Part shown: piece after piece, positions 17,139-19,659 of the stretch
How positions within the stretch are numbered: the first letter of the stretch is position 1
Layout: each line of letters opens with the position of its first letter
DNA from: Eledone cirrhosa
Taxonomy: Eukaryota
Reading direction: 5' to 3'
Assembly (NCBI GenBank): GCA_964016885.1
Contig: OZ024743.1
Span: forward strand, 110,980,001-111,044,000
DNA length: 64,000 nt
Position numbers and translations under genes: made by a program
The notes under the pieces: model-generated
What the model was told of the DNA's origin: nothing
Database searches by the model: none
The model's input: the letters and a program-made list of their open reading frames with translations, nothing else

Positions 17139-17633
17139 ATACCCTTCTGCAAGATAGTTGAAAGTTCGAAAGTATATACTTTCCTTATGAAAATTAACGG
17201 CTGAGCAGCCTAATTTGCATATCGAGTGAGTTAAGTTAAGTCGGTCAGGCATACCGAAAACGATAAGTTGAAATAAAATGAAAACGAAATTTCATTTCTC
17301 ACTCTTAGTACGGCACTTACTTAAATGTAAGTATGTATGTATACGTACATACATATATGTATACAGACGTACAGTAGCATGCACATATATATATATATAT
17401 ATATATATAAACAATTAAGTTAAGAATGTACATCCACATATGTATACTGAAATACTAGTATGCATATGAATACACACACGTATACATATGTAGATGTACC
17501 GAGTTTTTCACTGGTCACTTTACTGTGAGTGTCCAGCTATTCTGTATGTAAACACACAGACAAACCGGTTTTTAGAGTCATACTGGTTTTTTAGGAAACA
17601 CCTTTCCTCTATTCTCCAGAAAGCCAGACAAGG

Positions 17634-17678
17634 AATATTGAACTAGTTTCGATGTTGTTACATCTCATCAGCAATATT
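17634..17678 (-). ncRNA. Minimal type I hammerhead ribozyme (family A); copy at 18100-18144 has GAAA>GAAT
   Basis: Reverse complement of aatattg-CTGATGA-gatgt aaca acatc-GAAA-ctag-TT-caatatt. Confidence 0.85.
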
Positions 17679-18525
17679 TACCTATCTTCCGGCCTCTCTA
17701 GAGAATCGTAAAAGCACATATCGTTATATGCTTTTTCTATGAAAATTAGTAGTGGGCAGACTAATTTGCATAGAGCATGAGTACGTACCGGTTCAAGGGA
17801 GACGATAAAAACAAATAACGAAACGAAATTAAATTTCGTTTCGTTTGTAACTCACTTTTGTATGACTGACGCTTAAACAATTAAGTTAAAAATGTACATC
17901 CACATATGTATACTGAAATACTAGTATGCATATGAATACACACACGTATACATATGTAGATGTACCGAGTTTTTCACTGGTCACTTTACTGTGAGTGTCC
18001 AGCTATTCTGTATGTAAACACACAGACAAACCGGTTTTTAGAGTCATACTGGTTTTTTAGGAAACACCTTTCCTCTATTCTCCAGAAAGCCAGACAAGGA
18101 ATATTGAACTAGATTCGATGTTGTTACATCTCATCAGCAATATTTACCTATCTTCCGGCCTCTCTAGAGAATCGTAAAAGCACATATCGTTATATGCTTT
18201 TTCTATGAAAATTAGTAGTGGGCAGACTAATTTGCATAGAGCAGGAGTACATACCGGTTCAACGGAGACGATAAAAACAAATGTATTTCAGTATACATAT
18301 GTGGATGTACATTTTTAACTTAATTGTTTAAGCGTCAGTCATACAAAAGTGAGTTAGAAACGAAACGAAATTTAATTTCGTTTCGTTATTTGTTTTTATC
18401 GTCTCCGTTGAACCGGTACGTACTCATGCTCTATGCAAATTAGTCTGCCCACTACTAATTTTCATAGAAAAAGCATATAACGATATGTGCTTTTACGATT
18501 CCCTAGAGAGGCCGGAAGATAGGTA

Positions 18526-18570
18526 AATATTGCTGATGAGATGTAACAACATCGAAACTAGTTCAATATT
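18526..18570 (+). ncRNA. Minimal type I hammerhead ribozyme (family A)
   Basis: aatattg-CTGATGA-gatgt aaca acatc-GAAA-ctag-TT-caatatt: 7-bp stem I, 5-bp stem II, palindromic ACTAGT stem III. Confidence 0.88.
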
Positions 18571-18990
18571 CCTTGTCTTTCTTTCTGGAAATAGAGGAAA
18601 GGTGTTTCCTAAAAAACCAGTATGACTCTAAAAACCGGTTTGTCTGTGTGTTTACATACAGAATAGCTGGACACTCACTGTAAAGTGACCAGTGAAAAAC
18701 TCGGTACATCTACATATGTATACGTGTGTGTATTCATATGCATACTAGTATTTCAGTATACATATGTGGATGTACATTTTTAACTTAATTGTTTAAGCGT
18801 CAGTCATACAAAAGTGAGTTACAAACGAAACGAAATTTAATTTCGTTTCGTTATATGTTTTTATCGTCTCCGTTGAACCGGTACGTACTCATGATCTATG
18901 CAAATTAGTCTGCCCACTACTAATTTTCATAGAAAAAGCATATAACGATATGTGCTTTTACGATTCTCTAGAGAGGCCGGAAGATAGGTA

Positions 18991-19035
18991 AATATTGCTG
19001 ATGAGATGTAACAACATCGAAACTAGTTCAATATT
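18991..19035 (+). ncRNA. Minimal type I hammerhead ribozyme (family A)
   Basis: Identical motif 465 bp downstream of the previous copy. Confidence 0.88.
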
Positions 19036-19659
19036 CCTTGTCTGGCTTTCTGGAGAATAGAGGAAAGGTGTTTCCTAAAAAACCAGTATGACTCTAAAAA
19101 CCGGTTTGTCTGTGTGTTTACATACAGAATAGCTGGACACTCACAGTAAAGTGACCAGTGAAAAACTCGGTACATCTACATATGTATACGTGTGTGTATT
19201 CATATGCATACTAGTATTTCAGTATACATATGTGGATGTACATTTTTAACTTAATTGTTTAAGTGTCAGTCATACAAAAGTGAGTTACAAACGAAACGAA
19301 ACTTAATTTCGTTTCGTTATTTGTTTTTATATATATATATATATATATATATATATATATATATATATATATATATATATATATATATATATATATATAT
19401 ATTATATATATATATATATATATATACATACAGGTACACATACATATATGCACGTATCAGTTTAGCGGACGCTTATTATAACGCCGCTTTGTTCGTTTGT
19501 AGACAAACTGAACAGCCTGAATTTATGCCGAACGGTGTTAAGGCAACCGCGTCACCTTTTTGTTCAACACTGACACAGGAACGATGTACTAGTTTCAAGC
19601 TTAATTTTCATAAGGAAAGTATATACTTTCGAACGTTCAACTATCTGGTAGAAGGGTAT

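Follow-up and report, generated by a model that had tools for sequence, protein, structure and literature searches.

Newt satellite 2 is built of a tandem hammerhead unit with a weak helix III, and the unit contains an octamer that is part of a snRNA-type promoter. The non-LTR retrozymes of animals are dispersed, low-GC, non-coding and structured tandem units with one type I hammerhead each; Penelope-like elements (PLEs) are co-resident with them, and tandem cDNA templated by a circle has been proposed. The copying of circles by PLEs was put forward for retrozymes (PMC7229834; Cervera and de la Pena 2020), and a PLE origin is supported by co-occurrence and pLTR homology (10.64898/2026.07.22.740005; Li, Clavereau and Pollet 2026). 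As far as the text consulted goes, PLE mobilisation of animal retrozymes via circular RNA is proposed but not shown (PMC7229834; 10.64898/2026.07.22.740005), and the repeat described here, family A, gives genomic footprints.

The known layout of PLE insertions has an inverted truncated arm and a tail at one end (PMC8557442; PMC3846280). The tail is the sequence between two internal RT start sites, and the enzyme cleaves the two strands of the DNA and extends each of them (PMC11167929). EN+ PLEs of the Neptune type show truncated arms arranged head to head, a tail on one side only, microsatellites as targets, and a hammerhead upstream of the two internal RT start sites, all of which are found in family A.

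Family A lies in a window of 64,000 nucleotides of the Eledone cirrhosa genome (contig OZ024743.1, positions 110,980,001 to 111,044,000), which is rich in AT and microsatellites in a genome of 3.0 Gb. On balance, we regard it as a hammerhead retrozyme of 466 nt without coding capacity, whose DNA copies were likely synthesised from the two cut strands of the target by the RT/endonuclease of a co-resident Neptune-like PLE, probably travelling round a single circular RNA. Judged by its sequence, it is a further family of metazoan non-LTR retrozymes, because every retrozyme feature testable here was found: a type I hammerhead in each tandem unit (three of four intact at this locus), short, low-GC, non-coding dispersed arrays, and the marks of spread through an RNA intermediate. 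Its 466 nt exceed the 170-400 nt of PMC7229834 and fall inside the 51-972 bp of 10.64898/2026.07.22.740005. It differs from these retrozymes in its two-armed, fixed starts of PLE type, its hybrid with a PLE and its editing scars, which are not described in the accessible text of either source. Moreover, the family-A unit cannot be aligned to the pLTR of its partner, whereas 24 of 57 Xenopus families can (10.64898/2026.07.22.740005), and expression and cleavage are established for coral, mussel and axolotl retrozymes (PMC7229834; 10.64898/2026.07.22.740005), while family A is known from sequence.

The two-armed insertion and its hammerheads

Two TRF arrays adjoin at 17408-18282 (period 466, 1.9 copies, 98%) and 18283-19330 (period 465, 2.3 copies, 98%). 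A sequence-only reading of this DNA had described near-identical tandem units of 465-466 bp, with which these periods agree, as does the cut-to-cut length of 465 nt on the plus and 466 nt on the minus strand. The arrays are mutually inverted, and 17408-19330 is a single head-to-head family-A insertion with two arms, not four independent units. The four units of the earlier reading are thus real, but it missed that they are two arms of one Penelope-type insertion, belonging to a family of thousands of copies.

With the unit numbered from the predicted cut site, the left arm (17408..18282, minus strand, 1.9 units) extends from an inner end at unit position 291 to an outer (3') end at 232/233, start site 1. 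The right arm (18283..19330, plus strand, 2.25 units) extends from an inner end at position 186 to an outer (3') end at 301/302, start site 2 (...TTTTTAT|). Both outer ends adjoin (TA)n, at 17385..17409 on the left, which is the internal TA spacer of a unit of a related hammerhead repeat, family B, and at 19328..19430 on the right. Family A thus has an inverted truncated arm and a one-end tail. The tail (19257..19330, plus strand), the 69-74 nt between the two start sites, is present only at the outer end of the right arm and contains a ACGAAACGAAAT...ATTTCGTTTCGT hairpin; the tails of EN+ PLEs measure 30-40 nt (PMC8557442; PMC3846280; PMC11167929).

The predicted cut-to-cut monomer (18564..19028, plus strand) has 465 nt, about 35% GC, many hairpins and no ORF. 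It is strongly folded (z = -8.4 against 100 shuffles), and the longest ATG frames round the circle have 29 aa in sense and 48 aa in antisense, so the unit is non-coding, and the description of it as hairpin-rich and ORF-less holds. Family A is therefore non-autonomous, in contrast to EN+ PLEs with their RT and GIY-YIG frame, and its arms consist of many short units instead of ORF-bearing partial tandems. The octamer ATGCAAAT occurs about 120 nt 5' of the cut site, at 18433..18440 and again at 18898-18905 on the plus strand. Family A shares with newt satellite 2 both the weak helix III and an octamer, whose promoter role in family A is putative; ATGCAAAT, which is common to families A and B and tolerates A>G changes at some family-A loci, is a possible internal promoter element.

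The type I scan confirmed four hammerheads, two per strand and three of them intact. The intact cores lie at 18526..18570 (plus strand, predicted cut after GUU at 18563), 18991..19035 (plus, predicted cut after 19028) and 17634..17678 (minus, predicted cut after 17641), each with a 7-bp helix I, CUGAUGA, a 5-bp helix II, GAAA and a GUU site. In the fourth (18100..18144, minus), GAAAC has become GAATC, with loss of a core adenine, and the motif is predicted to be inactive. An Rfam search at the gathering score gave no match for the family-A hammerheads; below threshold, all four match Hammerhead_HH9, scoring 36.6, 36.5, 36.5 and 31.1 bits where the cut-off is 52 (E 4e-7 to 3e-5). A chance match was ruled out, given one other full type I match in the whole window and a conserved core. 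Among inherited variants, none of the 15 core positions is affected, compared with 99 of the 451 other positions (p=0.049), and 31 of 85 loci carry a compensatory A-U to U-A swap in helix II. The invariant core and the swap suggest selection on the ribozyme, whose self-cleavage is itself predicted.

These hammerheads had been called canonical and minimal, a description that two details refine: helix III is ACUAGU only, that is, one pair and a palindromic tetraloop, and helix I resumes beyond an internal loop for 7-9 further pairs. The axolotl HHR_Amex1 has the same one pair and palindromic tetraloop. A monomer with a 1-bp helix III has -0.3 kcal/mol compared with -14.8 kcal/mol for the inactive MFE, and the family-A motif therefore probably needs a dimeric fold. 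Axolotl motifs of this kind cut well only as dimers (PMC7229834), and a double hammerhead is proposed for family A because its ACUAGU helix III resembles them. Failure to cleave in vitro would not refute the element, since only one of nine Xenopus retrozyme dimers cut in vitro (10.64898/2026.07.22.740005) and the hammerhead of the anole PLE required protein (PMC11167929).

The repeat had also been read as young and able to release a monomer of about 465 nt. This reading is right, release of the monomer being possible in principle; the locus, however, is not the youngest of its family, its units diverging by 1.4-1.7% against a within-locus median of 0.5% (38 loci).

Paired ends, partner element and hybrid loci

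Genome-wide, exact junctions of site 2 with TA number 1,850, one site-1 variant has 660 exact matches, and 9,208 family-A hammerhead copies were found; the reversed-pattern controls gave 0 in each case. All 30 site-2 junctions sampled are family A, with subfamilies 88-98% identical, and the genome contains at least 1,850 family-A insertions. Since the targets are (TA)n, target-site duplications cannot be read. An assembly artefact was ruled out for the family, as the layout recurs at dozens of loci and variants are present in independent run contigs.

The two outer ends are paired. Among 16 two-armed loci with both arms' ends in view, taken from 25 stretches picked by similarity only, 12 pair an end at 300/301 with one at 226-233. 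In a second sample, of 68 consecutive loci anchored on site 2, five were cut by the fetched stretch and 63 were scored; BLAST detected a second arm at 46, ending at 227-234 in 44 of them, and a short site-1 remnant was seen by eye in 6 of the other 17. One locus (L047) has two different arms that both end at site 2. The inner ends are not gathered at the ribozyme, as only 1 of 196 falls within 3 nt of the cut site, with a slight excess at positions 1-20 (13 against 8.4 expected, p=0.09). At another locus (L162), about 70 nt of GC-rich foreign sequence, perhaps a captured RNA, separates the family-A arms; Rfam, run on L162 and L121, did not name this filler.

Fold-back has been proposed for head-to-head PLE structures (PMC3846280), with one arm reverse-transcribed and the other its self-primed copy. 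Nine inner ends do fall in a hairpin at 262-290, with long palindromic overlaps, and variants shared between arms would also be expected. Nevertheless, we find such an origin hardly credible for family A, given that either arm can be the longer (18 against 3 segments in L133, 1 against 8 in L146 and L151) and that the arms of the hybrid locus described below derive from two different RNAs. Separate priming of both arms by a PLE remains the preferred reading.

A candidate partner is a PLE with a 4,281-bp unit, its own hammerhead and a 1,279-aa open frame that contains YVDD, a CX4CX2C linker and a GIY-YIG-like motif. It was found as a neighbour in a locus of a PLE family with an 808-aa protein; its copies are 99-100% identical, and the family is very young. 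The protein appears Neptune-like, a label given because of its CX2-5CxxC-type linker alone, which by definition lies between RT and EN (PMC8557442). Pfam returned no match for either PLE protein (808-aa or 1,279-aa), and the best named match of one of the window's transposon proteins in a homolog search was from Octopus vulgaris, at 70% identity, most matches being unnamed. As a positive control for the two-end layout, 18 partner loci were fetched, picked as head-to-head pairs; 15 of them stop at 164 and 224 within (TA)n, and exact site-2 ends number 10,305. Site 2 is ...TAT|CGT in the PLE, in family A and in family B alike, preceded by a AAACGAAAT or AAATGAAAT word.

With blastn at word size 7, the family-A unit and the partner PLE gave short low-complexity matches only (best E 0.03), and the idea of family A as a pLTR deletion derivative of this PLE was rejected for want of alignable homology. 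The 808-aa family, reached from the decayed window PLE at 32282-35191, is not supported as partner: the scan of its relatives L111, L112 and L114 gave no element-associated hammerhead, and comparison with the family-A unit gave nothing beyond TA-rich words.

The link between family A and the 1,279-aa PLE comes from a hybrid locus (G000:C1:384827599-384839120), whose junction is known from the genome assembly. There, a PLE arm that stops at site 1 is joined, over a 6-nt AGTTGT overlap, to a family-A arm of 23 full units, 20 of them identical, that ends at site 2. Complementary ends of this kind are what a single enzyme complex would leave after priming one strand per RNA. Given the lack of alignable homology and the existence of other PLE families, identification of the partner depends on this single clean case. 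In another hybrid (L213), site 2 stands at either end, and two events may be represented. At L121, where the arm opposite family A is a piece ending in Neptune-like PLE site-1 sequence, a hybrid with a sister element is possible. No report of hybrids or editing scars for retrozymes was found in the literature searched, which was covered at the level of listings and abstracts, with subscription papers mostly outside it. That family A was mobilised by Penelope is, in our estimation, highly probable from these sequences.

Template of the tandem units

Evidence on the template comes from 110 loci (657 segments) out of at least 1,850, and changes are called private relative to these 110; because the comparison covers this subset, the source loci are mostly unseen. 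Forty-seven locus-private changes are fixed in all covering units, and 28 of them span both arms. On the hammerhead (sense) strand, the fixed private changes include 18 A>G against 6 T>C, six of the 18 coming from one locus; with three or more units, the counts are 11 and 3 (p=0.006). Single-unit changes (n=275) lean instead to T>C (21 A>G against 37 T>C), and the fixed and single-unit classes differ in their A>G and T>C counts with a Fisher p of 0.0017. The fixed excess of A>G in the sense strand therefore fits a single A-to-I-edited sense monomer that was read repeatedly, while an edited multimer would mark single units. Together with the PLE-patterned start sites, this excess indicates that family A spreads through an RNA intermediate, and we think it probable that the template was a circular RNA. 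A 495-nt contig from a run of unrecorded kind closes on itself after 465 nt, as would one from a tandem array.

Of 490 joints that span the cut site, 488 are seamless, which, with the single inner end among 196 near the cut, argues against jumping between cut linear monomers; such monomers were rejected as the main template.

An uncut, multimeric read-through RNA would account just as well for seamless joints and for ends that do not accumulate at the cut site; it would be inserted by the same two-primer route of the PLE, its hammerhead being conserved yet dispensable for copying, and no circle would be involved. The anole PLE used unprocessed RNA in vitro, and its hammerhead mutants inserted normally (PMC11167929). 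The weak helix III and the GUU site predict slow cutting, and the tandem units of the 4.3-kb partner PLE are likewise almost identical (1 difference in 3,379 nt). A linear multimer, or conversion between arms, predicts variants shared by units in mirror positions, and three variants are common to the mirror-position units of both arms only (two in L126 and one in L160), whereas 149 are not shared. The distance between arms is below that to the nearest other locus in 19 of 38 cases, which is not significant (p=0.15). Even so, we consider an uncut template unlikely: edits of a multimer should mark single units, yet the A>G excess is found in whole-array changes and is absent from single-unit ones, 20 of 23 units in one arm are identical, and the copying of a multimer cannot lengthen an array.

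It has been argued (10.64898/2026.07.22.740005) that such arrays arise in DNA as satellites are born, in which case a PLE would have inserted a monomer or short arm that was later multiplied through conversion, duplication and unequal crossover. In the longest arrays (17-74 units), length patterns are periodic and some variants are common to a subset of the units, with 74 split variants, mostly in four arrays. Two very long family-A arrays with periodic variants, G000:C1:81846873-81880713 (about 74 segments) and C1:5738093-5752746 (about 33), look like satellites in the making. As the general source of the arrays, this route is nonetheless quite improbable, since the two arms often hold several units each, share their private changes and stop exactly at the outer ends, numerous loci of 5-15 units are nearly invariant (L033, L034, L037 and L154 at or below 0.07%), and short arrays have mostly single-unit changes, not ladders.

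The circle-templated reading can be laid out as a series of steps. Tandem arrays of family A would be transcribed, as the A>G scars of the sense strand suggest. By analogy with known retrozymes, adjacent hammerheads would then pair their ACUAGU palindromes and cut after GUU or GUC, and a host ligase would close the monomers. In a TA run, the PLE protein would nick each of the two strands and begin RT at a pair of internal RNA sites separated by 69-74 nt, one for each strand; here the pattern of ends is observed, and the chemistry is taken from PMC11167929. Each enzyme would circle its template for a variable number of units, the units being observed to be identical and their joints seamless, and the circle being proposed. 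The two cDNAs would join at their truncated ends, often with the short overlap that is observed. Finally, a few long arrays would later expand by unequal exchange, consistent with the variants shared by subsets of their units.

A bolder form of this proposal, offered tentatively and rated just short of probable, is that a viroid-sized circle, unrelated in sequence to the pLTR of its helper, hijacks a dimeric PLE enzyme by mimicry of the start-site signal, and that its two active sites travel round one ADAR-edited circle, starting from the two opposite DNA strands, which would make each insertion a DNA record of one RNA. If this form is true, the hybrid names the enzyme, and a rolling-circle, target-primed RT system of animals could be reconstituted. 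Family A and the young, open-frame PLE are a matched pair of enzyme candidate and 466-nt substrate with mapped start sites. If the mechanism is true, it explains the spread of ribozyme satellites and the head-to-head, tailed form of PLE insertions, and it would provide a short template with which two-ended insertion into TA repeats could be programmed.

Neighbouring repeats in the window

Family A is nested in a two-armed insertion of family B (16766..20692), because its TA target is the internal spacer of the family-B unit. This host element is a hammerhead repeat whose ends lie 60 nt apart in its unit; family A interrupts its minus-strand arm (16766-19602), and its second arm follows on the plus strand (19601-20692). 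Family B has a GUA site, the same ACUAGU palindrome, the octamer, an internal TA run and a 60-nt tail, and a further copy lies at 55842-56714. Next to the host element, a 553-559-bp repeat with tandem and inverted arms occupies 20713-21980, with an older piece at 16374-16537. The scan detected no hammerhead in this repeat, which is possibly another PLE-mobilised family.

The decayed PLE at 32282-35191 is itself head-to-head and retains RT and GIY-YIG-like pieces; its 808-aa relatives are L111, L112 and L114. Two non-LTR RT fragments (RVT_1 matches) and a piece that resembles a Helitron-type helicase in its motif, with no Pfam match, lie at 2401-3707, 38899-39444 and 50552-50932. Hammerhead-like cores that stand alone and have no relation to family A or family B occur at 27318 (plus), 48819 (minus) and 61577-61642 (plus). 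Short pieces ending in Neptune-like PLE site-1 sequence are present in the window at 15470-15630 and 16617-16760, as well as at L121, L124 and L168.
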